Shown: positions 6,486 through 23,878, counted from the stretch's first letter. The stretch is DNA of 41,446 nt from an uncultured Gammaproteobacteria bacterium (GCA_964461825.1 CAYWVJ010000003.1:1-41446); one strand, 5' to 3'. The notes: generated by a model not told the origin, from the letters alone. A program made the numbers and translations.

Positions 6486-7446
6486 ATAGCTGCCGGGCAA
6501 ACTCCCGCCAGCTTCGATTATACACCGGCGGTTTTTTTGGTGAACCAAGCGCACGGACCGCTTCCGCTTCCGTCGTAAACCCTTTCCTTCCCATTATTTC
6601 GGGGAGCGCTCCGGCGTTGGCAAATACGACGGGGCAGCCCGAAGCCGCCGCCTCAACCGCCGGCAGACAAAATCCTTCCCATTTGCTCGTAACCAAAAGC
6701 GCGTGCGCGCCGCGGTAGTACGCGGCAAGTTCGCGGTCGGACACAAACCCCTTCCACGCGACGTGCTCGTGTTTTGAAATCGATCCAATTTCCGGATCGA
6801 GCCAGTAATCGCCGCCGATGATAATGAGATTATACGGTTTTTTCGTCAGGTCGCGGAATTTCCGGAAGATGCGGATAGCCTGCGGTACGTTTTTTATCCG
6901 CTTTATGGCGCCGACAAACAGAACGTACGGATGTGTTTCCCTGTGTATGTTGCCTCTGCGGGAAAAATGTCCGTCAACGCCTTCGTACACGACGCGCACG
7001 TCCGCGTGACGGATGTCGCGTGCGGTTGCGCGGGAAAACGTGACGATGGTATCGGCAACGCGTATGAGTTGCTCTGTCTGTTTTTTTAGACGCGAGTAGG
7101 AATCCGGATATGCGTCGGGGTAATGAAGAAACCCAACGTCGTGAACAAACCCGACGGTGCGCGCGGTCGTTTTCGGAAGCATCTGCGACAGCCCTAAAAA
7201 TACGTCAACGGGACGGCGCGCAAGCGCCAGCGGCAGCCAGAATTTCGACCAGCCGCGTTCGGGCAGCAGCACCGGCTTCATGCGCGGGGAAAAGCGCGGA
7301 ATCGGCCGCCAGGCGTACAGGCGGTATTCGTTTGTTCTGTCGATGGCGGCAAGCTCGCGAAGCAGATTGTACGTCACGCGCCAGACGCCGACCTTTAGCC
7401 GTTCGTCGGCAACCGACAGTGCACCTGCATCAACGCCGATAATCAT
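6448..7446 (-). CDS. glycosyltransferase family 4
   Basis: VLFVGAIKRIKNV...LLVTSKWEGFCLPAVEAAASGCPVVFANAGALPEI matches GT4. The track start at 7467 is a TTG; ATG 7446 (MIIGVDAG) is preferred. Confidence 0.85.
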   Translation of the reverse strand: MIIGVDAGALSVADERLKVGVWRVTYNLLRELAAIDRTNEYRLYAWRPIPRFSPRMKPVLLPERGWSKFWLPLALARRPVDVFLGLSQMLPKTTARTVGFVHDVGFLHYPDAYPDSYSRLKKQTEQLIRVADTIVTFSRATARDIRHADVRVVYEGVDGHFSRRGNIHRETHPYVLFVGAIKRIKNVPQAIRIFRKFRDLTKKPYNLIIIGGDYWLDPEIGSISKHEHVAWKGFVSDRELAAYYRGAHALLVTSKWEGFCLPAVEAAASGCPVVFANAGALPEIMGRKGFTTEAEAVRALGSPKKPPVYNRSWREFARQLYDEVITQRSAHS

Positions 7447-8779
7447 AGATGGTAATGGCAGCGTCAATGGGTATTGTGCTATACCGCGGGTTGTTTTGCA
7501 AAAAACTTATGGTTTTTTTCAGGTACGTTTCCGGCAGACCTTTACCGAACGCATTTATGCCGTTATCGATAAGAATCATCCGCACGTCATTTTTCCGGAT
7601 ATCGTCAATCAGCCGGTCTTCGCTTCCGGGCTGCATACAGGGACCGGTGTAGGTAAAATAGGTACCCAACAGGCGCCCGGTTGTAAGATACACCTCTGCG
7701 TTCCCCGGCAAAATGATTATCTTTTCACCCGGCTGCGAATACGTTTCCACCAGCCGGCGGTAGCGGTCCGCAGTGGTATCGTTCTGCCGCAGCATTGCCG
7801 CGTAATTGGTCACGCCAAGCCATAACAAAAGCACAAAGACCGCAGCCACGGTGCGCGTCTTTTTTTGCACAGTCATCCACGCAAGACCAAACATGGTATA
7901 CGCGCCCAGATGAAACCCGTCGGGACGGATAAACAACAGCCCCGCAAGAAGTATCATTACGGCATTTCTTTGCCAAAGCAGCCATATCGCCAGCGTAATT
8001 TCCAGCGCAACGGCTGCAGTGCGGTAATCGGTGATTGACCCGCGGATAAGCGGCGAAAAATATCGCCGGTATAATTCCCACGCCGACCCTGCGCAGCCCG
8101 GATAATACCGGATGTTGTACACGATAACGCTTTGGATGTAATCGCGCAGGTTAACCGATAAGAACAGAAGCCCTGCGGGAAGTACCGTTGCGGCAACAAG
8201 CGCGGTCCGCCCCGAACGCCGGTGCACGATAAAAAAGACCATAAGCACAAGTCCGACCGCAGTAAAAAGCGGATTTGCCGTCAGAAAAACAAACTGTGTC
8301 AGCGTGAACAGCAGCCAAAACGCGTATCCGGACATGCGCTTATGCATGGTAATAAGAAGAACGGCCGTAAGCGCAGCAAAAACAACGAGCGTATCCGCCA
8401 GTACCAGATGATAGCTGTAATGCGGCGCAAGAAGTGCGTACGCCAAAAGTAACATGAGCGGCGCGGCGTACGATTTGGTGTAGCGCCGGTATAGTAAAAG
8501 AATGCCGATAAAAACTGCATAAAATATGAACCGCGGCACGGATACGCCGCACGTGCCGGTTACCCTGTAGATGCCGGCGGTTACGTAGTAAATAAGCGGA
8601 TTATGCTGGGAAATAAATGACGAATACGGACGCAGACCCCGCAGCATAAGACACCCTCCAAGCATCGCTTCTGCGCTGTCGGACAACGGCCCGAACGGCA
8701 CGATAAAAATCCCGACGACGAAAACGAGGAAAACGAACGCGGCAGCGGCAAGGTTATGCCGAATATTTTCTGATGCCAT
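7430..8779 (-). CDS. polytopic membrane protein with a C-terminal soluble domain, possibly a GT-C glycosyltransferase
   Basis: 449 aa. About 340 aa of hydrophobic helices followed by a soluble ~100-aa tail. Embedded between GT4 and GT2 genes with overlapping ends. Confidence 0.55.
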   Translation of the reverse strand: MASENIRHNLAAAAFVFLVFVVGIFIVPFGPLSDSAEAMLGGCLMLRGLRPYSSFISQHNPLIYYVTAGIYRVTGTCGVSVPRFIFYAVFIGILLLYRRYTKSYAAPLMLLLAYALLAPHYSYHLVLADTLVVFAALTAVLLITMHKRMSGYAFWLLFTLTQFVFLTANPLFTAVGLVLMVFFIVHRRSGRTALVAATVLPAGLLFLSVNLRDYIQSVIVYNIRYYPGCAGSAWELYRRYFSPLIRGSITDYRTAAVALEITLAIWLLWQRNAVMILLAGLLFIRPDGFHLGAYTMFGLAWMTVQKKTRTVAAVFVLLLWLGVTNYAAMLRQNDTTADRYRRLVETYSQPGEKIIILPGNAEVYLTTGRLLGTYFTYTGPCMQPGSEDRLIDDIRKNDVRMILIDNGINAFGKGLPETYLKKTISFLQNNPRYSTIPIDAAITIYDYRR

Positions 8780-9554
8780 CGTAAATTCCCTTCCACGGCG
8801 TACTCACCGACCGCACACTTACCTCCCTGCCGAATCCGAACATGCAGCGGAGGATCCAGCTGATTTTCGTGAGCATGAATATGGGAAGCAACACCGCCGG
8901 CCGGTGTTTCAGGAAATAATATGTTTCATTGCTGAAAAAGTCGAAATACCAGGTAAGCCGGCCTTCGCTTTTGCGCGCACCGCCGGCTGCGGCCCGTACG
9001 TGCTCGACAACGGCCACAGGCTCAAACAGTATCGTATAGCCCAAACCTTTGGCGCGAAGCGACAGGTCCGTTTCCTCCCGCAGCGCATTGCCGGTAAACT
9101 TTTCGTCTACTCCCCCAAGCGCCAGAAACACGTCTCTTCGCCAGCACATGTTGCACCCGATCACGCTGTCAATTTCCTGACGGATCTCGGACGAATACCC
9201 GCCGCTGACGCCGCCCAAAAATCCGACTCTCCCGACGTGCGTGCTCATCGGTTCTGACTTTTGTCCACGCGTCAGTACCCGGCCGGACGTTGCGGCAATC
9301 TTCGGATCGCGGAAATTCTTTCGGTGGGCGTTAATAAGTCCCGGTCGCGCGATCACGTCATCGTCTAAAAAAAGCAACAAATCGCCTTTTGCTTTTTTTG
9401 CGCCCGCGTTTCGCGCGTGCGTCATGCTCGGCCTGGTAATTTGGCGCATGACGATTATTTCCAGAATATCGCGCCGTTCCCTTTTAAGCGACGCGATCGC
9501 CCGGTGCAGTTCGTTCTCGCGTTTGTACGTCGGGATGATAACGGAAACTTTCAT
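8754..9554 (-). CDS. glycosyltransferase family 2
   Basis: MKVSVIIPTYKRENELHRAIASL...LLLFLDDDV is the GT2 signature. ATGA overlap with the upstream GT4 at 9551-9554. Confidence 0.85.
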   Translation of the reverse strand: MKVSVIIPTYKRENELHRAIASLKRERRDILEIIVMRQITRPSMTHARNAGAKKAKGDLLLFLDDDVIARPGLINAHRKNFRDPKIAATSGRVLTRGQKSEPMSTHVGRVGFLGGVSGGYSSEIRQEIDSVIGCNMCWRRDVFLALGGVDEKFTGNALREETDLSLRAKGLGYTILFEPVAVVEHVRAAAGGARKSEGRLTWYFDFFSNETYYFLKHRPAVLLPIFMLTKISWILRCMFGFGREVSVRSVSTPWKGIYDGIRKYSA

Positions 9555-10582
9555 AGTGCGCTGAAAAAATCCGCAAACTTTTTCGCCTGTTCACCGATGG
9601 AAAATCGCGCAGCAATCATGAGTCGCGCGTTATTTCCCATTTTGATCGTTTTCGTTTTGTTGCGGGAAAGCATGCGGATGTCCCGCGCCATGCCTATTGT
9701 ATCTCCCTGCCGGTAGAGAAACCCGTTGTATCCGTCTCTGATGATTTCTTTGTTTCCGCCGATATCAGTTGCCAGTACCGGTATACCTATCGCCTGCGCC
9801 TCAAGAATCGCCATGGAAATGCCTTCATGGTGGCGCGTCGGAAAAAGCAGCACGTCGACGGCGCAAAGGTGCCTGTCCACGTTTGTCACGAATCCGGTGC
9901 GTTTGATGCCGGCCGGCAGCAGTTTCAAATAAGGCCCGTCGCCGATAACCACCGCAGCCGTTTTCGTTTTCTTTGCGACTGCGGCAAACTCCTCTATTCC
10001 TTTTTCTTTTGTTACGCTGCCTAAAAATCCGATCGTAAATTCTTTGTGCGGAGTTTTCTTCACCGGTTTCCTGTCGACGCCGATATAGATGACAATGATT
10101 TTTTTATCCGGCGCGCCGCCGCGTGTTAGATCACGTTTAGTATCAGCTGAAACGGCAATGATTCGGTCGACAAAGCCGCTTGCAATAAGAAAAAAGAATT
10201 TCACGAGACCAGCCGACTCCGACGCAAACAGCGGGCCGTGTACGATCCATACGGTTTTCCTGCGCAAAAGTTTCAGGATCGGCGTCAAAAATATCATTTC
10301 AGTGAGCGACTGAAGTACGATGACCTCATACGCCGCCGCGATACGCAGGTACCGCGCAAGAAACAGCGGCGACTGAAAAAGTACCGCGAGCAGTTGTTTT
10401 TTCGTTCCGACCTCTTTCGGCAACCACGTCTCCATGCGAACGGTATACGGTTGATTTTTCAGCATTTCCAGATTCGTGAGAAGCGTGACGTCGAGATATT
10501 TCCGCAGTTCACGAAGAAGTACGACGTTATATTTTTCCGCTCCGCTGAATCTCTCCGCCGGACGAATAAAAAGGATTTTCAT
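9551..10582 (-). CDS. glycosyltransferase family 4
   Basis: GFLGSVTKEKGIEEF...LLFPTRHHEGISMAILEAQAIGIPVLATDIGGNKEII matches GT4. The start overlaps the methyltransferase stop as ATGA (10579-10582). Confidence 0.8.
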   Translation of the reverse strand: MKILFIRPAERFSGAEKYNVVLLRELRKYLDVTLLTNLEMLKNQPYTVRMETWLPKEVGTKKQLLAVLFQSPLFLARYLRIAAAYEVIVLQSLTEMIFLTPILKLLRRKTVWIVHGPLFASESAGLVKFFFLIASGFVDRIIAVSADTKRDLTRGGAPDKKIIVIYIGVDRKPVKKTPHKEFTIGFLGSVTKEKGIEEFAAVAKKTKTAAVVIGDGPYLKLLPAGIKRTGFVTNVDRHLCAVDVLLFPTRHHEGISMAILEAQAIGIPVLATDIGGNKEIIRDGYNGFLYRQGDTIGMARDIRMLSRNKTKTIKMGNNARLMIAARFSIGEQAKKFADFFSAL

Positions 10583-11340
10583 GATTTTTGAAGTACAACT
10601 GCAAATGCCTGTGGCTCAAAAAACCTCGATAGATTTCGTAAATTCGCCAGCAAGGAATCCACAAGAACAATTGGATACCATAATATTTTACTTCTTCGCC
10701 ATCTCGCCAAACCGAATTTGTTCATCACTTTATTAAAAAAATGAAATGCGTTGGTGTTGAAAAATGTAATTCTCACGATTTTCATTTTATTCTTTTCTAC
10801 AAACCTATATAGCTCCTTCAATTTTATTCCTTCTTCAATCGGACTCTCCCCTGTACCTTGTTTTAAATACTCATAGATTGGTTCGCGAAGGAAAATGTAA
10901 CCACCATGTTTAAGTATTCTATACCAATGATTGAGTGTTTTGGTTTTATTTATTGTATGATGAAGAGCGCCTAAAGATAAAATAATATCCGCTGATTTTG
11001 TTGGCAACATCACTGTTGCCATATCTGCATGAATAAATCGACCAGAAGGGATATTTTTCTTTGCAAATTTTAGCAACTCACGGGAAACATCAACTCCTAT
11101 ATATTTGATCGCATTAACAATTTTTGTGTTCAAAATCCTTCGAACAGAAACGGCAGGACCGCAACCCATATCAAGTACTACCGTTCCTCGTTTAAAATAC
11201 TCTCTTCTCAGTAAAAAAATTTTTTCTGGAATCTCCCAAGTAAAATCCTTATTACTCCTATCATTATAAAAACTTGCGATTTGATCATGATAGTTCTCTT
11301 CCAGCCTCAAATGAGAATTGGGTTTTGTAATATACCTCAT
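10579..11340 (-). CDS. class I SAM-dependent methyltransferase
   Basis: Motif I VLDMGCGPA, then IGVDVS and LKHGGYIF. The gene is strongly AT-rich (28% GC in line 10741-10800) relative to its neighbours. Confidence 0.85.
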   Translation of the reverse strand: MRYITKPNSHLRLEENYHDQIASFYNDRSNKDFTWEIPEKIFLLRREYFKRGTVVLDMGCGPAVSVRRILNTKIVNAIKYIGVDVSRELLKFAKKNIPSGRFIHADMATVMLPTKSADIILSLGALHHTINKTKTLNHWYRILKHGGYIFLREPIYEYLKQGTGESPIEEGIKLKELYRFVEKNKMKIVRITFFNTNAFHFFNKVMNKFGLARWRRSKILWYPIVLVDSLLANLRNLSRFFEPQAFAVVLQKS

Positions 11341-11388
11341 ATATTTTTTCTTTTAATAGTGTTCTAATAGCTAAGAGAGTATTGTATC

Positions 11389-13650
11389 ATGACTTATAAA
11401 CTGCCCACTATTCCTTTCTTATTAGCATTATTTCTTTTATTCTTTGTTCCCTTATCTTCTGTCAGTGCCGGATTTGGATTTATTAAGAATTCACAACCCG
11501 TATTTTCTCCCGATCAAACCAATTGGGATTCTGTGCAAGTTTTAGATTCATTTCTTATCAATCAGGGTAATTCATATGGTATGTGGTACGCGGGACATGG
11601 TACATACAATGGAGGAACGTCTGACCATTGGAAGCTTGGTTACGCGCAAATGGATAAAAGCACAAACGCATGGACAAGAAATGCTTCGATTCTATTATTT
11701 CAAGGATTATCCGATCTCCAGGAAGCCGAATCGAGTGACCCCTTCATAATAAAAGAAAATGATAACTCATATAAAATTTGGTATGACGCCTACAATCCAC
11801 CACAATCTGGTATTCGGTACGCTACATCAACAGACGGGCAAACGTGGACTAAATATTCGTCTGCAGTATTAACGGGAACGCAAGGTAAATTTGATAGCGC
11901 AGGATTGGCACGTGGAAAATCAGTCATTTACGATGGTACTGGCTATCGCATGTGGTATACAGGAAGTTCTGGCGGCGGAAAGTGGGCAATTGGATATGCA
12001 ACCTCTCCAGACGGCGTTAGCTGGACCAAACAGAACAACGGCAACCCAATTATCGTAAAAACTGAGGCGTGGGAATACGATAATTTGAGTTACCCTTACG
12101 TCTTTTTCGCATATGGAAAATACCACATGTTTTATGCGACAGGACCAGGGGATCTGCCAACAAGAATAGTATATGCAAATTCTTTAGATGGTATTAACTG
12201 GAATAAACCATCCGATCTCAATCCCGTGTTTGACCGTAATAGCTATCTTTGGGAAAGTCAAAGTATTGCCTCCCCGTTTATTCTTATCGAGGATAATAAA
12301 CTTAAGTTGTGGTACTCTGCATACGGCGTAATGAATCCCCAGAATCTGAACGATTGGCGATGGCAAATCGGGTACGCGGAGGCGCCGCTCTCAAATTTAC
12401 CCGGCGTGACACCGGAAACGAAAAAAATTTTTATCGTTCCTGGCTTCGGAGGCTCATGGAACACCGAAGCACTGCTCAACTGCCGCCTCAATGAAACGAA
12501 TCCGGAGTCGTGGACGATCACTCCCTACATAGGGTACGACGTATACCAGCCATTATTCGATACACTTAATTCGTCGGGTAAAATTGCCTTCTATTTTCCT
12601 TATGACTGGCGGTGGGGAATCACGCATACGGCGCCTGTCCTTGCGAATAAATTAGCGTCTTCAACGCTTGATACGGAAAAAGTTGATCTTATCGGTCACA
12701 GTCTGGGCGGACTGCTTGGAAAATCCTATCTTGACCAAACAACCGATGAGACCAACAAAATACGGAATTTTATTGCCGTTGGTACGCCGTTTCAGGGCGC
12801 TGTCGGGGCATATCCGGCATGGTCGGCCGGCGAAGTCTGGAGTGATAACATGCTCGCCCGTATCGGCATGACAACAATTATAAATGTCTGCGGAAAATTG
12901 AGGGCAAAAACAAACAGGGACGTCGTCAGAGACCTTATACCTTCCATAGGAAATCTCCTGCCGCGTTTTCCGTATCTTACCGATGTGAAAACACAAGAAA
13001 CGCGGTCTGCCGCTGACGCGGATAATACGTGGCCGCTTGCGCCAATAGCAAATAGTTTTAAAGGTTCACGCATAAAAACCGTATCCGGGACCGGATTTTC
13101 CACGCTTTCGGGTCTGGATGTAAAAGACCCCACGAACGGCGATCGTAAATACAATAATTGGCTTGATGGAAAACCGCAGAAGACAGAAACAAGCACCGCA
13201 GGCGACGGCACGGTACTGTCACTGGCTTCTCGCCTTGCGAACGTCGACAATACGGAGATTACTGCGACCCATTCGGGGCTCGTGAATTCGCCCACCGGCA
13301 TGCAGACGATTTTTTCGCTGCTGGGAATTCCGTGGCAAAACAGCGCCGCTCAGCCGTCAGAAATAAAAAGTGCGCTTACCGTCATCGCGTACCCGGCAAC
13401 GAGCACCATGACTGATCCTTCGCAGGCGGTACGGAAGGATATCCAGAACATGATCGGGTTCTCCAATCCGAAACGCGGATCGTACCGCCTTGCCGTCGTT
13501 CCCAAGTCGGATACCACACGGGTTTATGTAGGGCAATTTCTCGAAAACGGGCGGAACCTGTGGAAGGAATACTCGTTTAACGGAAAACTTCCATTTAGTA
13601 AAACCCTCATCTTTGATCCTGACAACCCTACAGAAGACGCACTGCAGTAA
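11389..13650 (+). CDS. secreted fusion protein: five-bladed beta-propeller (GH43/32/130-like, Asp-box-like repeats) plus LCAT-family lipase/acyltransferase
   Basis: Signal peptide ending SVSA|G. Five repeats with WY strands and SxDGxxW(T/N)K motifs. Then IVPGFGGS, FPYDWRW, GHSLGG (Ser438 at nt 12700-12702), GDGTV and THSG in the LCAT-family order. Confidence 0.8.
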   Translation: MTYKLPTIPFLLALFLLFFVPLSSVSAGFGFIKNSQPVFSPDQTNWDSVQVLDSFLINQGNSYGMWYAGHGTYNGGTSDHWKLGYAQMDKSTNAWTRNASILLFQGLSDLQEAESSDPFIIKENDNSYKIWYDAYNPPQSGIRYATSTDGQTWTKYSSAVLTGTQGKFDSAGLARGKSVIYDGTGYRMWYTGSSGGGKWAIGYATSPDGVSWTKQNNGNPIIVKTEAWEYDNLSYPYVFFAYGKYHMFYATGPGDLPTRIVYANSLDGINWNKPSDLNPVFDRNSYLWESQSIASPFILIEDNKLKLWYSAYGVMNPQNLNDWRWQIGYAEAPLSNLPGVTPETKKIFIVPGFGGSWNTEALLNCRLNETNPESWTITPYIGYDVYQPLFDTLNSSGKIAFYFPYDWRWGITHTAPVLANKLASSTLDTEKVDLIGHSLGGLLGKSYLDQTTDETNKIRNFIAVGTPFQGAVGAYPAWSAGEVWSDNMLARIGMTTIINVCGKLRAKTNRDVVRDLIPSIGNLLPRFPYLTDVKTQETRSAADADNTWPLAPIANSFKGSRIKTVSGTGFSTLSGLDVKDPTNGDRKYNNWLDGKPQKTETSTAGDGTVLSLASRLANVDNTEITATHSGLVNSPTGMQTIFSLLGIPWQNSAAQPSEIKSALTVIAYPATSTMTDPSQAVRKDIQNMIGFSNPKRGSYRLAVVPKSDTTRVYVGQFLENGRNLWKEYSFNGKLPFSKTLIFDPDNPTEDALQ

Positions 13651-14002: not shown

Positions 14003-14005
14003 GGG

Positions 14006-14078
14006 TGGGCGGTATAGGACTTGAACCTATGACCTTTTCAATGTCAATGAAACGCTCTGCCAGCTGAGCTAACCGCCC
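14006..14078 (-). tRNA. tRNA-Val (anticodon GAC)
   Basis: Reverse complement folds as GGGCGGT TA GCTC AGCTGGCA GAGC G TTTCA TTGACAT TGAAA AGGTC ATAGG TTCAAGT CCTAT ACCGCCC A. All four stems are perfect. The 3' trailer is CCCA, so CCA is not encoded. Confidence 0.9.
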
Positions 14079-15530: not shown

Positions 15531-15782
15531 TCAGGCAGTGATGACGGAAACCAGTTTCTTTCCCAATTTTCTCGAAAAATTTACCACGCCGCCGGTTACT
15601 GCGTAAATCGTAAAATCGCGGCCGATGCGCACGCCCGATCCCGGATGTACTTTTGTTCCTTTTTGCCGGATGATGATTGCGCCGGGTTTTGCCGTCTGGC
15701 CGCCGAAAATCTTTACGCCCAGCCGTTTGCTGACTGAATCTTTATTTCCTGCTGCCGTGCCGCCTGCTTTTACGTGTGCCAT
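15531..15782 (-). CDS. rpmA: 50S ribosomal protein L27
   Basis: MAHVKAGGTAAGNKDSVSKRLGVKIFGGQ...IIIRQKGTKVHPG matches L27. There is no N-terminal propeptide. Confidence 0.9.
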   Translation of the reverse strand: MAHVKAGGTAAGNKDSVSKRLGVKIFGGQTAKPGAIIIRQKGTKVHPGSGVRIGRDFTIYAVTGGVVNFSRKLGKKLVSVITA

Positions 15783-17141: not shown

Positions 17142-18203
17142 TCAAGATTGGGCGCGCCGCGCAATGGCCCACAATATACCGAACGAAATACCGGTCGAAA
17201 GAATGGAGCTTCCGCCGTAGGAAACGAACGGCAGCGTAATGCCGGTGATGGGCACGAGCCCCATGTTCATGCCGGCGTTGATGAAAATCTGCGCAAGGAG
17301 CATCGCAACGAGCCCCAACGAGTACGTGAATACGCGGCCGTCGGAAACAACGCCGCGCGTAAGCGGCCATACGATCCGTAACAGCAGCGTCGCGTATCCT
17401 CCAAGCAGCAGCAGTCCGCCGAAAAAGCCGAGCTCCTCGACAAGCGTCGCAAATATGAAATCCGTGTGGTACTCGGGCAAGAACCGCAGGTGCGATTGCG
17501 TGCCCAAACCCAACCCTCTGCCGAACAGTTTTCCGCTGCCCACGGCAATCATTGCCTGCAGCGCATTGTAACCGGCTCCTTTGGGGTCGATGCCGGGATT
17601 CACGAAGGTCGCGATCCGTGATTTTTGGTAGGACGCCAGATGCGACCACACGACCGGAATGCTAGCCGCCGCGACACCAAGCACTGCGGCAAACAGCCAG
17701 ACGGGCAACCCGCCGGCCAGGAGCATCGTTAGCCAAAACGCCGCGTACACGATGCTGCTTCCCAAATCCGGCTGCCGGAAAACGAGAAAAAACGGAACGA
17801 CAAACAGCCCCAGAAGCAGCGGCAGATTGGTAATCCTGCGCGGCGGATATTTTGCAATGAACGAGGCAAACGCCAGCAGCAAGAAAGGTTTCACGAGTTC
17901 CGAGGGTTGCAGCTGTACGCCGAACAAGAGTATCCAGCGCGTCGCGCCGCGGATTGACGGCCCGAGGTAACTCACGAGCAGGAATACGTTCGCCAGAACA
18001 TATCCGATTGGCGCAAACCACCAAAGAATCTCACCGTCGACGCGCGAAAGGAAAATCATGAGAAAAAATGCGACCGCAAGATATAAGAGCTGCGAGATAA
18101 ACAGCGACGGACTGATCGACAGAAGAATAAACAGTCCGAGACTGCCGATGCAGAAAAGGATAACCGCCGTTATCCAGTCGAAATGGTAAGCGTGTCTGCC
18201 CAT
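17142..18203 (-). CDS. rodA: SEDS-family peptidoglycan polymerase (RodA-type; second SEDS copy in the window)
   Basis: Polytopic, with SEDS motifs: LQPSELVKPFLLL, QPDLGSS, GAGYNALQAMIAVGSG, LPEYHTDFIFA, GITLPFVSYGGSS. Start at ATG 18203 overlaps the ileS 3' end. Confidence 0.8.
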   Translation of the reverse strand: MGRHAYHFDWITAVILFCIGSLGLFILLSISPSLFISQLLYLAVAFFLMIFLSRVDGEILWWFAPIGYVLANVFLLVSYLGPSIRGATRWILLFGVQLQPSELVKPFLLLAFASFIAKYPPRRITNLPLLLGLFVVPFFLVFRQPDLGSSIVYAAFWLTMLLAGGLPVWLFAAVLGVAAASIPVVWSHLASYQKSRIATFVNPGIDPKGAGYNALQAMIAVGSGKLFGRGLGLGTQSHLRFLPEYHTDFIFATLVEELGFFGGLLLLGGYATLLLRIVWPLTRGVVSDGRVFTYSLGLVAMLLAQIFINAGMNMGLVPITGITLPFVSYGGSSILSTGISFGILWAIARRAQS

Positions 18204-20959
18204 GAAACCGTGTCCGCGAGCGTTTCTTTCTGTATATACGCAAGGTGATCCGGCGAAAGCTGCGCTTTGTATTTTTCCGGCAGCGTGACGCCGATACGCG
18301 CACTGATCGCGCATTTCTGCCCTTTACGCAGCAGTTGGATCTCGCGGACCAGATCCCGCGCAGTGCCGTCAGCGCGCAGCGCGTCCGTGAGCGTTGTATC
18401 CAATGTTACGCTGAATTCCCCGACGGAATTTACTGCTTTTTTGACGTTCACTTCCTGTTCGATAATCGGCAGCGTCTGTGAAAGCGCCACCGGGGTCGTG
18501 CAGGTCATCGACGAAAGCGGCTGGCGTACGCGGATTTTCTGTTCCTTACGGATCGCGTGGGCGGCTTCCACGACGCGTCTGGCCAGCAGCATTTCGTTCT
18601 CAAGATCCTCATCAACCCTGCCTGCAGCCGGCCATGCTTCAAGATGCACGGATTCTTTTCCGGTCAGATTGCGGTAGATCTCTTCCGAAACAAACGGAAT
18701 AAGCGGCGCGAGCGCTTTCGAATACTCTGATAACACGGTCCAGAGCGTTTGGTACGCCTCCGGCCCGATACGAGTTCGGCTTTGCCGGACGTACCACTGT
18801 GAGAGATCTCTCATGAAAATCCATGCCTGCCCAACAATTTCTGGGGTATCATATTTCTCATATCCTTTTTCAGTCATGATTCTGATATTGCCATTCATAC
18901 GGGATAGTATCCATCGATCCATCACATGCGTTGGTGTAAACGGTTTATCTGACGGCTGCCAGTTGTCGGCACTCGCATACGTCACGAAAAAGTTATAAAC
19001 GTTCCATAACAGAAGCAGTGTGCCCCGAACCTGCGCCTTATAATCCGTCTCCGAAATCCGTATGTCTTCCGCGTGCATCACCGGCGATCCCAGAAGATAC
19101 AGCCGCAGCGCATCGCCGCCGTATTTCGCAAGCATTTCTTTGGGGTCAGGATAGTTGCCGTAATTTTTGCTCATTTTCCTGCCGTCGGTTCCCAAAATCA
19201 CGCCCGAAACAAGGACGTTGTTAAATGCGTGCGAATCGAAAATCGCAGTTGCAATGACGTGCAGCACGTAAAACCACGCGCGGATCTGCCCCGTATACTC
19301 GGTAATGAAATCCGGCGGGAAAAATTCCGTAAGCTTCAGCGATGTGTCAAACGGAAAATGGCGCTCGGCAAACGGCGCGCTGCCCGCCTCTATCCAGCTG
19401 TCAAGCACCTCAGGGACGCGGCGCGAGTCTTTGCCGCATTGTGCACAGGGAACGACGACCTCGTCAATGCCGGGTTTGTGAAGATCGGAAATTTTCGTAT
19501 GCGACGCCTGTTCGAGTTCGGCGATGGATCCGGGCACGAACCGGTGTCCGTCTGCACATTCCCACACCGGCACGGGACTGCCCCAGTACCGGCTGCGCGA
19601 TATGCACCAGTCCGGCGCGTTCTCCAGACTTTTGAGATACCTGCCGTACTTGAAATGGTCCGGGTACCAATTAACTTTTTCGTTCGTCGCCTTCATTTTT
19701 TCCTTCAGCGCCTGCACGTTTACGTACCATGCATCCTGCGGGGCATAATAGAGCCTCGTATGGCATCGCCAGCACGTCGGCACGGCGTGGGTATACTGAT
19801 CGATCCGGTAAATGAGCCCGCGGTTTTTAAGATCCTCGATGACGAGCGGGTCAACGTCGAGATAATATTTGCCGGCCCACTTGGGCACGTCCGGCTTCAT
19901 AACCCCTTCTTCGTCGACATGGAGTACGATCTGGATGTTTTCTTTCTGCATGACCGCCAGGTCCTCTTCACCGTATGCGGCGATGGTCACGATGCCCGTC
20001 CCTTCTTCCGCCGTCACAAAATCGCCGGGGATTACGACGAATGCTTTCTTGCCTTTGTCGACCGGATAAAAATCGTAGTGCGGAACGAATTTCTTTCCGA
20101 CGAGTTTTTCACCGGGAAATTCTTCGATAATTTTATACGGCTCGCCCGTCAGCATACCGGCCGTGGATTTCGCGAGAATATATTTTTCGTCACCTTGTTT
20201 AACTTTTATGTATGTCAATTTCGGATTCACCGCAAGTGCCGGCGTCGCGATTTTGTTCCAGGGCGTCGTGGACCACGCAAGAAAATACGTATCGAGCTCA
20301 TCCGCCAGCCGGTACATAAACACCGCAGTGGGCTCAGTCACTTCCTTATAGTTGTCCGCATCCATCGCAACTTCGAAATTCGAAATGGGCGTCACGTCAT
20401 GCGGACAGTACAGGGAAACCCGCAGCCCCTTGTACACGAGATTTTTATCGTACATCTGTTTGAAAACCCACATCACCGTTTCCATGTACGGCACGTCCAT
20501 GGTTTTGTAGGCGTTCGTAAAATCCACCCATCGGCCGACGTGGTCCACGTACCATTCCCATTCGCCGGAAACCGCCGACACGTACGCTTTACATTCGGCG
20601 ATAAACTTCCCGACGCCGATTTTTTCCTCAATGTCTTTTTTGCGTTTGATGCCGAGTTTTGCCTCGACCTTGTTTTCCGCCGGCAGGCCGTGGCAGTCCC
20701 AGCCCCATACGCGGCGCACGCGGAAGCCCTGCATCGTTTTATACCTCGGAAAAAGATCCTTGGGAATGCTCGAGAGCAGCGTGCCGTAATGCGGAAGTCC
20801 GGTGATAAACGGCGGGCCGTCCAGGAACGTCCAGTTGCCGTTTGGCGAATCGCGCGCTACCGACTTTTCGAAAATTTTATTGTCTTTCCAGTACGTGAGC
20901 ACCCGCTCCTCGAGTTCGGGAAAGTTGACCTGTGCTGAGACCGGATTAAACTTAGGCAT
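18170..20959 (-). CDS. ileS: isoleucine--tRNA ligase (type 2-like, compact 929 aa)
   Basis: FLDGPPFITGLPHYGTLL (HIGH region), GWDCHGLPAE, CWRCHT zinc knuckle, KMSKN. AGGAGA Shine-Dalgarno sequence 12 nt upstream of the ATG. Confidence 0.92.
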   Translation of the reverse strand: MPKFNPVSAQVNFPELEERVLTYWKDNKIFEKSVARDSPNGNWTFLDGPPFITGLPHYGTLLSSIPKDLFPRYKTMQGFRVRRVWGWDCHGLPAENKVEAKLGIKRKKDIEEKIGVGKFIAECKAYVSAVSGEWEWYVDHVGRWVDFTNAYKTMDVPYMETVMWVFKQMYDKNLVYKGLRVSLYCPHDVTPISNFEVAMDADNYKEVTEPTAVFMYRLADELDTYFLAWSTTPWNKIATPALAVNPKLTYIKVKQGDEKYILAKSTAGMLTGEPYKIIEEFPGEKLVGKKFVPHYDFYPVDKGKKAFVVIPGDFVTAEEGTGIVTIAAYGEEDLAVMQKENIQIVLHVDEEGVMKPDVPKWAGKYYLDVDPLVIEDLKNRGLIYRIDQYTHAVPTCWRCHTRLYYAPQDAWYVNVQALKEKMKATNEKVNWYPDHFKYGRYLKSLENAPDWCISRSRYWGSPVPVWECADGHRFVPGSIAELEQASHTKISDLHKPGIDEVVVPCAQCGKDSRRVPEVLDSWIEAGSAPFAERHFPFDTSLKLTEFFPPDFITEYTGQIRAWFYVLHVIATAIFDSHAFNNVLVSGVILGTDGRKMSKNYGNYPDPKEMLAKYGGDALRLYLLGSPVMHAEDIRISETDYKAQVRGTLLLLWNVYNFFVTYASADNWQPSDKPFTPTHVMDRWILSRMNGNIRIMTEKGYEKYDTPEIVGQAWIFMRDLSQWYVRQSRTRIGPEAYQTLWTVLSEYSKALAPLIPFVSEEIYRNLTGKESVHLEAWPAAGRVDEDLENEMLLARRVVEAAHAIRKEQKIRVRQPLSSMTCTTPVALSQTLPIIEQEVNVKKAVNSVGEFSVTLDTTLTDALRADGTARDLVREIQLLRKGQKCAISARIGVTLPEKYKAQLSPDHLAYIQKETLADTVSWADTLTISTG

Positions 20960-21075
20960 TATAAAACCGCTCTCCTTCTATTGAACCATAAAGCTTATTC
21001 AACTTTAAGGTTTATTATAAAGGACGAGCGGCTATAACTCCAGCTCCGGGGGCGGCAGCTTCCTGCACGTTCCTA

Positions 21076-21124
21076 CAAGGATAATCCTCGTAGCCTAGCT
21101 CCGCTGCCGCAGGAATGGGGGGAT
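21076..21124 (-). repeat. distal copy of a 49-nt imperfect direct repeat (18-nt perfect core plus relic ftsZ tail)
   Basis: 37/49 nt identical to 22723-22771. The core CAAGGATAATCCTCGTAG is 18/18 identical. Confidence 0.85.
21095..21124 (-). pseudogene. displaced ftsZ 3'-terminal fragment (IPPFLRQRS*)
   Basis: Minus strand reads TAA ATC CCC CCA TTC CTG CGG CAG CGG AGC TAG. This gives 8/9 residues plus the stop identical to the live ftsZ tail IPAFLRQRS*, in GC-rich host-like codons and preceded by an in-frame stop. Confidence 0.6.
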
Positions 21125-21231
21125 TTATAGGACAAACATGTCAATACGCTTCAACTTCTAGTGAGAAACAACAAAATAATCTAGCATTTTTCAGTCTACT
21201 GGGGAAAATGTATCAGAGATAAAGAACAAAA

Positions 21232-21834
21232 TCAATCAAGAATCGGCACGCACTGTTTTATTTCACTATTTCTAAAGAGGATGGATTTATTTGTTGTATA
21301 CATTAATCCTTTATTTGGATTACTCTCAAAGCCCAAATATATAACTTCTACTCCCCTTCTTCTCGCTTCAGCAATTGCGGGTTGTAAGTCAGAATCAGAA
21401 CTACAAACGATTGCTTTTTTTATTGCCCTATCACAACTAGAAGAAACGAGATCAACAGCAATCCTTACGTCAACGCCTTTTTCCTTAAATGTGATACGGG
21501 ATTTGCCATTAAACATAACGATCTGTGGTCTTACGTTACCTGCTAAAATAAATTCAAATCCCTGCTTTTCCAATGACGTTTTCAGTATTCGTTGTTTTTG
21601 TATTAACTCCTTGGATTTTTTTAGTGTTTCAGGAAACTCATGATATTCTCGTAATTTTGCAGCATAAAAAGTAAATTTGTCTATATGTTCGTTTGGCACT
21701 GATAAAGAGAGAAGTTTTTTTAGATCAACGTGAATACTATCTATTTTGTCTTTTTTGACACCTTCTTGCATGAGTGCATCTTCTAGTTTGAATAAAAAGT
21801 TTTCACCGTCAATAAATAAATAAGTATTCTCCAT
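21232..21834 (-). CDS. NYN-domain (LabA/limkain-type, PIN-like) protein
   Basis: YLFIDGENF at the N-terminus, KGVDVRIAVDLV, and IVCSSDSDLQPAIAEARRRGVEVIYLGF match the NYN (PF01936-type) acidic motifs. Confidence 0.8.
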   Translation of the reverse strand: MENTYLFIDGENFLFKLEDALMQEGVKKDKIDSIHVDLKKLLSLSVPNEHIDKFTFYAAKLREYHEFPETLKKSKELIQKQRILKTSLEKQGFEFILAGNVRPQIVMFNGKSRITFKEKGVDVRIAVDLVSSSCDRAIKKAIVCSSDSDLQPAIAEARRRGVEVIYLGFESNPNKGLMYTTNKSILFRNSEIKQCVPILD

Positions 21835-21843
21835 GTTATCTAA

Positions 21844-21852
21844 AGTATACCA
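21844..21852 (-). promoter_or_regulatory. candidate extended -10 promoter (TGGTATACT) for the NYN gene
   Basis: Minus strand reads TTTTTTAGTGGTATACTTTAGATAACATG. The -10 ends 9 nt before the ATG and no Shine-Dalgarno sequence is present. Confidence 0.45.
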
Positions 21853-21854
21853 CT

Positions 21855-21887
21855 AAAAAACCTCGTCGGGCTTTCGCATGGACGAGG
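21855..21887 (-). terminator. intrinsic terminator candidate (minus strand)
   Basis: CCTCGTC (21861-21867) pairs with GACGAGG (21881-21887), a 7-bp GC-rich stem with a 13-nt loop. On the minus strand it is followed by U6 (AAAAAA at 21855-21860 on plus). Confidence 0.55.
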
Positions 21888-22005
21888 CGTTTATGTTTAT
21901 ATAATACACTATTAGAATCTCCTTGTCAATAATTTAGATTGTTTAGACGCGCTATACGCTCTATTGACACTAATAAAAATAGTATACACATTATACAACT
22001 GGTTG

Positions 22006-22011
22006 TATAAT
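22006..22011 (+). promoter_or_regulatory. candidate -10 box (TATAAT) for the 22034 ORF
   Basis: Perfect TATAAT 22 nt upstream of the ATG. A weak -35 (TATACA) sits 17 nt upstream. AAGGA Shine-Dalgarno sequence at 22023-22027. Confidence 0.35.
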
Positions 22012-22033
22012 TAGGCTAGATAAAAGGATTTAT

Positions 22034-22408
22034 ATGTATATCAAAAAGGAAATTATAATTATACTCATTTTTCTTATATTGCTTGGAGCGGGATTTTACC
22101 TTTATTGGAATACACAGAAAGAAATTAACGCTCAAAAATTGCAAATAAATAATCTTCAGCAAACAATAGCTACAAACAATGATCGTATTACGCAATTAAC
22201 CTCAGAAAATGCAAGTTTAAGCAGCCAAATTAAATCCATCATATCGACTCCAACTCCAACAGCAGCCGTACGTTATGTAGCACCATCACATCCAGACCTA
22301 TCTAAATGTACAATGGAAGGGAATTTCTATTTTTGTAGCTCTGATAATTGTTATTACAATCCAAATGGTACTAAAACCGGCGTCTGTAAAATACCGTTTG
22401 GTCAGTAA
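22034..22408 (+). CDS. small membrane-anchored protein with a coiled-coil segment and a 4-Cys C-terminal module (hypothetical)
   Basis: TM helix IIIILIFLILLGAGFYLYW, heptad-like LQINNLQQTIATNNDRITQLTSENASLSSQIKSI, and C-terminus CTMEGNFYFCSSDNCYYNPNGTKTGVC. Has a good Shine-Dalgarno sequence and a -10 box. Confidence 0.6.
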   Translation: MYIKKEIIIILIFLILLGAGFYLYWNTQKEINAQKLQINNLQQTIATNNDRITQLTSENASLSSQIKSIISTPTPTAAVRYVAPSHPDLSKCTMEGNFYFCSSDNCYYNPNGTKTGVCKIPFGQ

Positions 22409-22454
22409 AAGCAAATTAGGATTCCTTCTTAATAAATAAATGGGATTTCATATA

Positions 22455-22480
22455 TAGGGATTAAAATGAATTAATCCCTA
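22455..22480. repeat. perfect 10-bp inverted repeat TAGGGATTAA-(6)-TTAATCCCTA
   Basis: Arms at 22455-22464 and 22471-22480, 47 nt downstream of the 22034 ORF stop. There is no clean U-tract on either strand. Confidence 0.6.
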
Positions 22481-22590
22481 CGCTCAAACCCCAAGCTACT
22501 CTTAAATATTCCTCGCAAGAACATTAGAAAATAACTTAGAAATATTGCATCTATGCATTGCTTAGGCTGTGTTACTGACTTCACCTAAGC

Positions 22591-22608
22591 CCCTCGCTGT
22601 CGCGAGGG
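22591..22608. repeat. GC-rich hairpin CCCTCGC-(TGTC)-GCGAGGG
   Basis: 7 perfect base pairs (22591-22597 with 22602-22608). Immediately preceded by the CTTAGG(17 nt)CCTAAG hairpin at 22561-22589. Confidence 0.5.
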
Positions 22609-22722
22609 CTATAGGCGGATTTACTACCTGATTACTGGGAATATCAAGAGAAAAATTGAGTGGGGTATTATCGGTGGGTAATCCGACACCGACAACACTT
22701 AAATCACACTTTTTTAATACTT

Positions 22723-22771
22723 CAAGGATAATCCTCGTAGGCTAACTTCTTTGTCTCAAAAACGCCGGGAT
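22723..22771 (-). repeat. proximal copy of the 49-nt imperfect direct repeat (live ftsZ tail plus 18-nt core)
   Basis: See 21076-21124. This copy includes the last 9 sense codons and the TAG stop of ftsZ. Confidence 0.85.
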
Positions 22772-23878
22772 GTCGAATTCGTCCTCTTCGGGAGGAAGCT
22801 CGTCGTCTGAAATCACCGGCGGAGCCGGAGGGGGTTTCATGTTTGACGTTTGGGAAACGGTCGGCTGCTGCGGCTGAGATGCCGCACCGTAACTTCGGCC
22901 CGAAAGTTCACGGAGCCGCTTCTTGGTCTCGTCAAACCCCGTGGCAATGACCGAAATTTTCACCTGGTCTACCATATTCTCGTCAATCGTCGCACCGAAA
23001 ATGATATTCGCATCCGGATCAACCGCCGCAGCGATCTGTTTGGCCGCTTCATCCACCTCCGCCATGGTGAGATCTTTGCCGCCGGTGATATTGAAAAGCA
23101 CGCCCTTGGCTCCGTCAATCGACATTTCCAAAAGCGGCGATGAAATTGCCGTCCGTGCCGCCGTGGCCGCGCGGTTTTCGCCGACGCCGGTACCTATGCC
23201 CATCAGGGACGATCCGGCGCTGGTCATGATCGTGCGCACGTCGGCAAAGTCCACGTTAATAAGCCCGGGCATCGTAATCAGATCTGCGATCCCCTGCACT
23301 CCCTGCCCCAGAACCGAATCCGTCACGCGAAACGCGTCTAACAGCGTCATTTTCTTATCAATGACTTCCAAAAGCCGCTGGTTGGGAATAACGATGAGCG
23401 TATCCACTTTATCTTTGAGGTTCGCAATGCCTTCCTCAGCCGTCACCATCCGGCGCGTCCCTTCAAACTGGAACGGTTTGGTCACGACCGCAACGGTCAG
23501 CGCTCCGAGTTCCTTGGCGATCTCCGCGATAATCGGCGTTGCGCCGGTGCCCGTGCCGCCGCCCTCGCCGCAGGTTAAAAACACCATGTCGGTGTCGCGC
23601 AAAAATTCCTTGAGCTTTTCGCGCGATTCCTCAGCCGCCTGTTTACCGATTTCCGGATTACCGCCGGCGCCCAGACCCCGCGTGAGATTTTCGCCGATCT
23701 GGATCTTTGTCTGCGCCTGGCACGTCAGAAGCGCCTGCGCATCGGTATTGACGCCTAAAAAATCCACGCCGCTTATCTGGCTCACTAAAATCATCGAGTT
23801 GATGGCGTTGCATCCGCCGCCGCCGATGCCGATGACCTTGATTTTGGCAAACCGCGCAATGTCTGGTTTTATGAGCAT
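22742..23878 (-). CDS. ftsZ: cell division GTPase FtsZ
   Basis: [44 protein letters not shown], and the C-terminal peptide [10 protein letters not shown]. Confidence 0.95.

Follow-up and report, generated by a model that had tools for sequence, protein, structure and literature searches.

In a 41,446-nt stretch of DNA from an uncultured bacterium (CAYWVJ010000003.1, positions 1-41446; the whole stretch is called the window throughout), the gene ftsZ is followed by an insert of low guanine-plus-cytosine (GC) content, which begins within the codons of the conserved FtsZ C-terminal peptide, the FtsA-binding site, and is closed by a second, displaced copy of the same ftsZ tail. Very probably, this insert has arisen by deletion, with loss of the integrase, from a member of a family of integrative elements which are small (5-9 kb) and belong to Candidatus Gottesmanbacteria, and for which the DNA encoding the C-terminal peptide would serve as attachment site. 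In the following, L-numbers refer to the loci and contigs compared and P-numbers to proteins.

The minus-strand gene ftsZ (22742-23878; Pfam Tubulin 8.6e-50, FtsZ_C 1e-35) terminates at 22771-22742 with the residues IPAFLRQRS and a stop codon (GAC ATC CCG GCG TTT TTG AGA CAA AGA AGT TAG), followed by a single c and the 18-nt motif CTACGAGGATTATCCTTG. The relic, at 21124-21095 on the same strand, stands behind a stop codon and reads IPPFLRQRS and stop (TAA ATC CCC CCA TTC CTG CGG CAG CGG AGC TAG), followed by g and the same CTACGAGGATTATCCTTG. A repeat search returns both junctions as a single 52-nt direct repeat (21073-21124 versus 22720-22771) with 75% identity and a spacing of 1647 nt, exactly the distance at which a first-pass annotation of this DNA had placed the displaced tail. 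The differences counted in that annotation are likewise reproduced: the two tails mismatch at 11 of 30 nt, nine of these mismatches are synonymous, and eight of the nine have A or T in the live copy and G or C in the relic. Its remark that arginine is encoded by CGN elsewhere in ftsZ applies to all 14 Arg codons of the ftsZ body, compared with AGA at both Arg codons of the live tail. The low GC content that it had noticed for DNA inserted into the tail codons was computed as a mean of 0.341, against 0.564 and 0.538 in the flanks, with 200-nt windows ranging from 0.27 to 0.38 over 21100-22600. A six-frame scan of the window for [IV]PxF[LM][RK]x[RK] finds these two tails and nothing else, and a chance match of eight of nine residues plus the stop is expected, by our own estimate, about 1e-6 times per 41 kb. 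The closest FtsZ sequences are those of Candidatus Gottesmanbacteria (Patescibacteria), with a best identity of 91%. The live tail equals the clade consensus, which is held by 92 of the 120 closest FtsZ clusters, and IPPFL occurs in none of these clusters.

Integrase-bearing relatives of the insert are found behind ftsZ of other Gottesmanbacteria. At least 120 clusters share 64% identity or more with the integrase, almost all of them 335-369 aa in length, and five lineages were looked up; orphan tails were sought by a six-frame scan of every locus compared. All five lineages have Gottesmanbacteria hosts and encode a tyrosine integrase of 338-340 aa with 64-80% mutual identity. In four of them, the integrase starts 130-185 nt past the ftsZ stop on the same strand, while in L109 one integrase-less unit lies in between. 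The five lineages are arranged as follows.

P0241 (L109, L110): ftsZ tail, 1.5-kb integrase-less unit, relic, 6.5-kb unit running from the integrase to NYN, relic.
P0247 (L111-L114): ftsZ tail, 9.4-kb unit with integrase, TerB_N, Omega-like repressor and Zeta toxin, relic.
P0326 (L115-L118, including a public Gottesmanbacteria metagenome-assembled genome): ftsZ tail, 5.3-kb unit with integrase, Phage_CRI rep and NYN, relic decayed to IPAFLR-stop-RS-stop, further genes, ileS.
P0322 (L119, L120): 5.7-kb unit with integrase and rep, relic.
P0300 (L121): 5.0-kb unit with integrase, DUF4238, rep and HicA toxin, relic.

Hence, the earlier proposal of an element which targets the 3' end of ftsZ and brings a replacement end is matched by four integrase-bearing elements directly after ftsZ and a fifth one cassette away, all of them closed by a relic. 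The elements measure 5-9.4 kb, and each ends with TGTC(C/A)TATAA and a 30-nt relic tail reading IPAFLRQR(S/N) and stop, apart from the decayed relic of L115. More generally, TGTC(C/A)TAT(A/T)A abuts all relic tails (L004, L083/L109, L111, L115, L119 and L121), and the right end TGTCCTATAA adjoins relic tails at six loci besides the window. A TTGAAG(C)-type box lies 13-15 nt upstream in most relics, the exceptions being the relic at 9849 of L109 and those of L115 and L119. At the opposite end, four integrase-bearing elements share a left arm, GGG..AGCTTCAA..ATCTGCATTTT..TTCCTCGCAGGAC..CCCAAGCTACTCC, which ends at the integrase start, whereas L109 has kept the ATCTGCGTTTT part alone. Insertion is at the same codon in L004, L109, L111, L115, L119 and L121, and the GC content of the element is below that of its host at all five loci measured. 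This architecture is shared by 2-4 samples per lineage in all lineages but L121, whose DNA comes from one sample. Samples with full-length elements include SRR15237809, SRR26159228 and JGI 3300005673. A 6.5-kb tail-bounded segment, with a tyrosine integrase as first and NYN as last gene, was picked up in L083/L084 through the NYN homologue P0006, and L004 holds two tandem integrase-less units, each closed by a relic. All orphan tails on the ftsZ strand are preceded by the family right end, the sole exception being an inverted copy in L006 (Levyibacteriota; about 8842-8871, minus strand). This tail lies 1.7 kb downstream of ftsZ, outside long open reading frames and without TGTCCTATAA, and could represent either a relic that was rearranged or a mimic of the peptide.

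As for the genes carried, no integrase of the phage collection searched exceeds 30% identity to that of the family, whose best matches among solved structures are of the Xer type (3e-20) and IntI4 (4e-12). A rep gene is present in L115, L119 and L121, with 24% identity to filamentous-phage rep; a Zot-like ATPase, as expected of an inovirus-like prophage, is absent from the precomputed domain lists of these three rep-bearing elements, a negative that leaves the structures of small open reading frames aside. At loci other than L004, it is toxins or nucleases (NYN, HicA, Zeta) that stand nearest to the right end. The integrase-less units of L004, in contrast, carry housekeeping-like cargo at 7156-7698 and 8550-9260, namely peptide deformylase and a DNA-alkylation-repair-like protein. 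A scan of viral contigs for TGTCCTATAA plus the start of the tail gave one match, a spurious terminator-like hairpin.

Compared with these elements, the insert of the window is short. Its features and those of its surroundings are listed here from ftsZ towards ileS.

22772-23878, minus strand: ftsZ body, host part up to codon D369, 91% identity to the closest Gottesmanbacteria FtsZ.
22742-22771, minus strand: live tail, core of the left attachment site (attL), with codons 1-3 host-like and codons 4-9 element-like.
22720-22740, minus strand: palindrome CTACGAGGATTATCCTTGAAG resembling repetitive extragenic palindromes (REP), at the left junction, 1 nt past the ftsZ stop.
22634-22711, minus strand: remnant of the C-terminus of a Phage_CRI-type rep, deletion end-point, found by tblastn with the L115 rep.
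22450-22656, minus strand: conserved non-coding block with box A (22510-22520), box B (22490-22502) and a terminal hairpin.
22034-22408, plus strand: open reading frame for a cargo protein of 124 aa, membrane-anchored at its N-terminus and containing a coiled coil.
21856-21929, minus strand: promoter-like site TTGACA-17-TATTAT and leader hairpin with T-run, upstream of NYN.
21232-21834, minus strand: NYN gene (PIN-like nuclease, LabA/DUF88), 200 aa, Pfam NYN 4.4e-14.
21125-21155, minus strand: family right arm GTTGAAGC-N13-TGTCCTATAA (TTGAAGC-type box and end), common to related elements.
21095-21124, minus strand: relic tail, core of the right attachment site (attR), with codon 3 (CCA) element-like and codons 4-9 host-like.
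21073-21093, minus strand: host copy of the palindrome, CTACGAGGATTATCCTTGTAG, native, upstream of ileS.
18170-20959, minus strand: ileS, Pfam tRNA-synt_1 1.8e-116.

About 330 nt of non-coding DNA adjoin ftsZ, and the rep remnant is found here: its 26 codons match residues 305-330 of the L115 rep (54% identity, E 0.007, tblastn), and its position relative to the conserved block is the same in the window and in L115. In all, about the last 40 codons of rep are left in the insert. Towards the other end, the NYN protein is 78% identical to P0006, which occupies the same slot in the integrase-bearing element L083/L109. The distance from NYN to the relic is about 107-108 nt in the window and in L109 alike, and the DNA alignment between the two is continuous from upstream of NYN through the relic. 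With a family right arm, NYN gene, non-coding block and rep remnant, the insert therefore belongs to the element family, and the rep remnant at the left junction marks it as a deletion derivative, in agreement with the previous suggestion of an element either decayed or mobilised in trans. Judged by these alignments, the insert would represent the right-hand quarter of an L115-like element plus one extra small gene, and the DNA deleted from the window copy would extend from just past the ftsZ stop to about rep codon 305, and with it the left arm, the integrase and the greater part of rep would have gone. A search for other copies of the segment, beside an integrase or another ftsZ, had been suggested in the first-pass annotation; NYN, right end and block recur in elements of the L109/L115 type.

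The NYN gene itself gives PADLOC matches to HEC-09 and NYN. A promoter scan matches 11 of 12 consensus positions upstream of it, and downstream of this promoter follows the leader hairpin, CCTCGTC..GACGAGG TTTTTT. A 40-nt stretch of the leader is 97.5% identical to the L109 leader (15596-15635) and hence exceeds the coding region in conservation; this leader resembles an attenuator or a small RNA. The possibility that NYN is a native neighbour of ftsZ was rejected: its closest homologues, P0002 and P0007, stand in unrelated contexts, and P0006 is the only one in an ftsZ element. For the 124-aa protein, 24 representatives reach E<=1e-3, and almost all are about as long. Its matches to DivIC (21 bits, cut-off 28.9) and to an Rz-like spanin are sub-threshold and run across the coiled coil, and neither identity was retained.

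The position of the crossover can be approached through the tails of other hosts. In attL alignments of four hosts, the ftsZ linker is diverged and conservation sets in with the tail codons and runs past the stop into the left arm; moreover, the 30-nt tails of L115 and L121 are identical while their hosts are different. Since conservation continues from the tail into the left arm, the tail attached to ftsZ travels with the element. The earlier claim that the tail is carried by the element is upheld to this extent, whereas the crossover lies probably inside the first 9-11 nt and not at the tail edge. Tails were compared for their first 11 nt in L001-L004, L008 and L104-L121, some of which are element-free. 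Of 14 distinct live tails of Gottesmanbacteria, 13 have ATCCCCGCATT at these 11 nt without any change, synonymous positions included. Codons 4-9, by contrast, are free to differ among Gottesmanbacteria where the change is synonymous. Exceptions at the first 11 nt are the window host (55% GC) with ATCCCGGCGTT and L004 with ATCCCCGCGTT. Within other loci, the identity between attL and attR begins at nt 1 and runs for 8-14 nt. When the codons of the window were scored as log-odds (log10 host/element), the live tail gave +1.5 for codons 1-3 (ATC CCG GCG) and -2.4 for codons 4-9, and the relic gave -1.0 for codon 3 (CCA) and +3.7 for codons 4-9. Owing to this switch between codons 3 and 4, both window tails look chimeric. 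The crossover in the window thus probably fell inside the first 9-11 nt of the tail, with only FLRQRS and the stop being replaced. The change from Ala to Pro in the relic would then lie on the element-derived, never-translated half and, hence, need not be a decay mutation. An attempt to place the crossover by inverted repeats around ATCCC was dropped, the palindrome CGAATTCG upstream not being conserved in other hosts.

According to the mechanism proposed here, a full-length member would carry a tyrosine recombinase directly past its left arm, usually a Phage_CRI-type rolling-circle rep, and a nuclease or toxin gene (NYN, HicA, Zeta) near its right end. Strand exchange would occur in or beside the nearly invariant first 8-11 nt of ATCCCCGCATT. 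After integration, ftsZ would stem from the chromosome up to about codon A372 and from the element from FLRQRS and stop onward, and the displaced host end would come to lie behind the right arm TGTCCTATAA of the element. In the window, the element-derived part of the live tail would accordingly be the AT-rich one and the displaced host part the GC-rich one. An unoccupied site would read GAC-ATCCC..TTCCTGCGGCAGCGGAGCTAG directly.

That such elements move between hosts is indicated by the comparison of integrases with host proteins. Between L109 and L115, FtsZ and FtsA are both 91% identical and the integrases 67%, while between L109 and L111 the values are 82% for FtsZ, 79% for FtsA and 80% for the integrases. 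This incongruence of integrase and host argues for mobile elements and against a conserved island. The nearest FtsZ relatives of the window, L104, L106 and L107 (90-91%), carry one tail and neither TGTCCTATAA nor an integrase. In total, a single tail without TGTCCTATAA is found in L001, L002, L104, L106 and L107, so that the search for empty sites called for by the first-pass annotation was successful among relatives, but gave none of the same species. The linkage of ftsZ to ileS is seen in L002, L010, L015, L018, L020, L021 and L107 and is common in Microgenomates.

The 18-nt motif behind both tails has to be treated separately. CTACGAGGATTATCCTTG occurs exactly twice in the window, at 22740-22723 and 21093-21076 on the minus strand, where shuffled sequences predict 0.02 occurrences with three mismatches allowed. 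It is part of an extragenic palindrome of 21 nt with a 9-bp stem and a 3-nt loop. The first-pass annotation had noted this motif behind both tails. At no other locus compared is there a repeat past the stop codon, which places the motif outside the attachment site of the family. Element-free L002 has CTACGAGGAGTCTCCTTGTAG about 50 nt upstream of ileS, followed by CG(T)CC(G)TTTATAATAA, and a promoter-like CGCCGTTTATAATAA after the palindrome is common to the window and L002. By this comparison, the palindrome on the relic side is native host sequence upstream of ileS. The exact 21-mer of the left junction is also found in the unrelated contigs L090 (2786-5321) and L093 (1020-1760), each with several palindromes of the same kind. 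In L090, five palindromes of the form CT.C.AGGA-NNN-TCCT.G.AG surround an IS200-like Y1_Tnp open reading frame (4631-5299), a cluster that adjoins an NYN gene, argS and comEC. Judging from these copies, the motif appears to behave as a REP-type repeat. A scan of metagenome and viral contigs for the exact 18-mer gave 16 matches, and in none does an ftsZ tail precede the motif; by eye, three resemble ribosomal RNA, two represent the REP-like family (L090 and L093), and the rest look like chance.

How a palindrome came to stand after each of the two stop codons may be explained in several ways. Favoured is an aberrant excision from an earlier low-GC host which took the tail and the hairpin along, as this would also account for the missing left arm and for the rep remnant abutting the hairpin. 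Independent insertions at the two places or a template-switch copy made during the deletion are further options. Capture of tail and hairpin from an earlier host would imply a low-GC relative with an ftsZ ending in TTTTTGAGACAAAGAAGTTAG and then cCTACGAGGATTATCCTTG. A motif CG(T)CC(T)TTATAATAA upstream of ileS is seen in three Gottesmanbacteria (window 20960-21072, minus strand; L002 7483-7530; L115 20600-20700) and is probably the -10 region of the ileS promoter. An assignment of the hairpin to a T-box leader of ileS was without Rfam support and was abandoned.

The conserved non-coding block is found at 22450-22656 (minus strand) in the window, at 13961-14167 in L115, at 8937-9111 in L109, at about 13760-13825 in L119 and at about 14046 in L121. 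It lies directly past the rep gene in L115, L119 and L121, and in the window its 5' part overlaps the rep remnant. The window copy shares 35 nt at 100% identity with L115 and 31 nt with L109, while the elements are otherwise only about 70% alike. In an nhmmer search with a profile of the block alignment, the window scored 1.9e-60, its own copy being part of the profile, and other full copies reached 5e-55 and 5e-43. Seven of 40 predicted pairs are compensatory, and the terminal hairpin shows changes of this kind. Rfam gave no match to the block or elsewhere, apart from two transfer RNAs (tRNAs) and a chance microRNA match. The integrase leader contains two boxes with complementarity to boxes A and B of the block (TCCTGCGAGGA and GGAGTAGCTTGGG), and of these leader boxes box B' is predicted to form one arm of a conserved hairpin sequestering the Shine-Dalgarno sequence and start codon of the integrase; in the window, boxes A and B are found in the distal block only. 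Duplex energies between block and leader are about 1-6 standard deviations below those of shuffled controls, most of them 2-5. Such pairing suggests control of the integrase at the RNA level, or else shared protein-binding sites; for the block itself, a role as regulatory RNA, as a set of operators or as origin of replication is conceivable.

Several points weigh against the interpretation of the insert as a member of this family. The canonical left-arm motifs AGCTTCAA and ATCTGCATTTT are missing at the left end of the window copy, and across the entire 41-kb window there is no integrase, rep gene or IS200-type transposase, which extends the absence of an integrase reported previously for the 1.65 kb and makes mobility of this copy a matter of conjecture. 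The longest identical run shared by the two window tails is the 5-nt ATCCC, a rather short run for a tyrosine-recombinase overlap. Three codons, scored with an element codon table of only 326 codons, underlie the placement of the crossover, and the perfect 18-nt identity beyond the stop is unpredicted by the attachment site of the family and needs a separate explanation. Neither a genome of the same species with an empty site nor a free circular form was found. Finally, the window junctions rest on one contig, which is the sole carrier of the window's proteins.

The deletion may have taken place after integration, but a variant of the deletion-derivative explanation, which does not contradict it, holds that the 1.65-kb segment itself was mobile. 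In this case, an aberrant excision in an earlier low-GC host of the clade would have produced a 1.65-kb circle containing rep remnant, block, gene for the 124-aa protein, NYN, right arm, core, host tail and host hairpin, which was then integrated with an integrase supplied in trans. This would explain at once the loss of the left arm, the chimeric state of both tails and the rep remnant abutting the palindrome, as well as the AT-rich FLRQRS and stop at the left junction, 1 nt away from a palindrome that is native after ftsZ in the clade. Tail-flanked integrase-less units are, moreover, common, with two in L004 and one in L109 upstream of an integrase-bearing element. However, the scans for the 18-mer gave no match after an ftsZ tail, no donor host with ...TTTTTGAGACAAAGAAGTTAGcCTACGAGG... 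was found, and the window has no integrase to act in trans. Hence, this variant is regarded as a serious possibility with somewhat under an even chance.

The other explanations do without such an element, or turn it into something else. An origin of the insert by ordinary recombination, homologous or illegitimate, with DNA of a low-GC relative whose ftsZ is natively followed by these genes would be in line with the variability of the ftsZ-ileS interval among close relatives, with a distant NYN after ftsZ in L005 and with NYN homologues away from ftsZ. It is nevertheless improbable, as both junctions lie within the first 9-11 nt of the two tail copies, a pattern left by one reciprocal crossover with a circle and not by a two-ended replacement, and as the insert contains the family right arm TGTCCTATAA, a rep remnant and the element block. 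Similarly small is the probability of an integron-like or Xer/dif-like platform, i.e. a recombinase residing beside ftsZ and capturing tail-ended cassettes. Tandem tail-closed units in L004 and L109, some of them without an integrase, would suit a platform, and so would the structural matches of the integrase to Xer-type proteins and IntI4. In L109, however, the integrase sits inside a two-tail unit which has been pushed off ftsZ by another unit, integrase phylogeny is incongruent with the host, the elements carry their own rep, and close relatives lack both integrase and relics; besides, the relics are copies of coding sequence and not attC-like hairpins. Least probable of all is an assembly chimera, in which a low-GC fragment was joined into a high-GC contig at a short repeat. 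While the sharp GC break, the single contig and an exact repeat of just 18 nt could be taken for such an artefact, it requires two mis-joins, the second leading back into the original contig 30 nt upstream of the point of departure, and an ftsZ without the left junction of the insert would be missing its essential tail. Furthermore, the succession of tail, element, TGTCCTATAA and relic recurs in many independent assemblies. The k-mers of metagenome assemblers are usually longer than an exact repeat of 18-20 nt.

Targeting and replacement of the 3' end of a protein gene are not without precedent. The element e14 of Escherichia coli supplies the 3' end of icd, and a 163-bp pseudo-3'-end is left behind as the far repeat (PMC6379469). 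Therefore, the mechanism as such is already known from e14. Like e14 and phage 21 in icd, the present family consists of tyrosine-integrase elements that enter the 3' end of a protein gene of an essential pathway and provide a replacement end. Unlike them, it duplicates only 30 nt (nine codons, of which probably six are exchanged) and targets the FtsA-binding peptide; its members are 5-9 kb long and encode a rep of the rolling-circle type but nothing recognisable as a virion gene, and their hosts are Patescibacteria. What constrains the element tail is its amino-acid sequence, synonymous sites being free, and the two copies in the window consequently differ at 11 of 30 nt. For icd, too, the two copies reportedly differ mostly at synonymous sites.

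A second parallel is offered by ICESt1 and ICESt3 of Streptococcus thermophilus and the related integrase-less cis-mobilisable elements (CIMEs), which occupy the 3' end of fda, build up by tandem accretion and are mobilised in cis or in trans by a related element. Shared with these are the 3' end of a housekeeping protein gene as target, units in tandem and integrase-less derivatives flanked by attachment sites. A CIME keeps both attachment arms and has lost its integrase; in the window, the right arm and core are kept and the canonical left-arm motifs are absent. In contrast to ICESt1, ICESt3 and the CIMEs, no conjugation genes are seen here, and the window copy, being without its canonical left arm, may not be mobilisable. 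Islands in genes for tRNA and transfer-messenger RNA are alike in that the crossover falls inside the gene, the element carries the distal part and a displaced copy marks the far junction, but the target here is protein-coding. The resemblance to REP sequences and their associated tyrosine transposases (RAYT) is confined to the 18-nt motif, an extragenic palindrome with copies around a Y1_Tnp open reading frame in L090; the window differs in having two palindrome copies and no Y1 transposase in its 41 kb.

With regard to novelty, a full-text literature search, whose coverage excludes subscription journals, gave no paper on ftsZ as attachment site, and titles and abstracts on mobile elements of Patescibacteria named no ftsZ-targeting element. 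We know of no element family of this kind, and descriptions of mobile elements whose boundaries and sites are known appear to be few for the Candidate Phyla Radiation. The target, the element family and the host group hence appear to be new.

Apart from the insert, the window has a second low-GC stretch at 10000-12500 (GC 0.35-0.44). It contains a gene for an S-adenosylmethionine-dependent methyltransferase (10579-11340, minus strand) and the start of a gene for a 753-aa protein (11389-13650, plus strand) with lipase/esterase-like and GH32-like matches. The stretch adjoins a glycosyltransferase gene, and a tRNA-Val (14004-14078) lies about 1.5 kb past its end. A link between this stretch (about 10.0-12.5 kb) and the ftsZ insert was considered and discarded, no flanking repeats, tails or integrase having been found.

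For the hosts, an element at this site means that every integration must regenerate a working division protein, as the exchanged segment is the FtsA-binding peptide. The ftsZ-ileS interval presents itself as a hotspot of gene flux, carrying NYN, HicA, Zeta and, in L004, peptide deformylase. For annotation, some caution follows: in these genomes ftsZ may end in foreign DNA, and a short orphan tail of ftsZ is the sign of an element boundary. On a broader and more tentative reading, to which we would give slightly less than an even chance, Gottesmanbacteria and perhaps other Microgenomates harbour widespread and still active small integrative replicons with the codons of the FtsZ C-terminal peptide as attachment site. 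The last six of these codons would be rewritten with each integration, the replicons would stack in tandem and shed integrase-less satellites, and their integrase may be under the control of an element-encoded RNA (boxes A and B). The parts of the family, i.e. integrase, left and right arms, 30-nt core and likely replication module, are starting material for a site-specific integration vector. If this broader reading is true, they would amount to a defined system of bacterial attachment site (attB), element attachment site (attP) and integrase for a lineage of the Candidate Phyla Radiation, a group with very few genetic tools.

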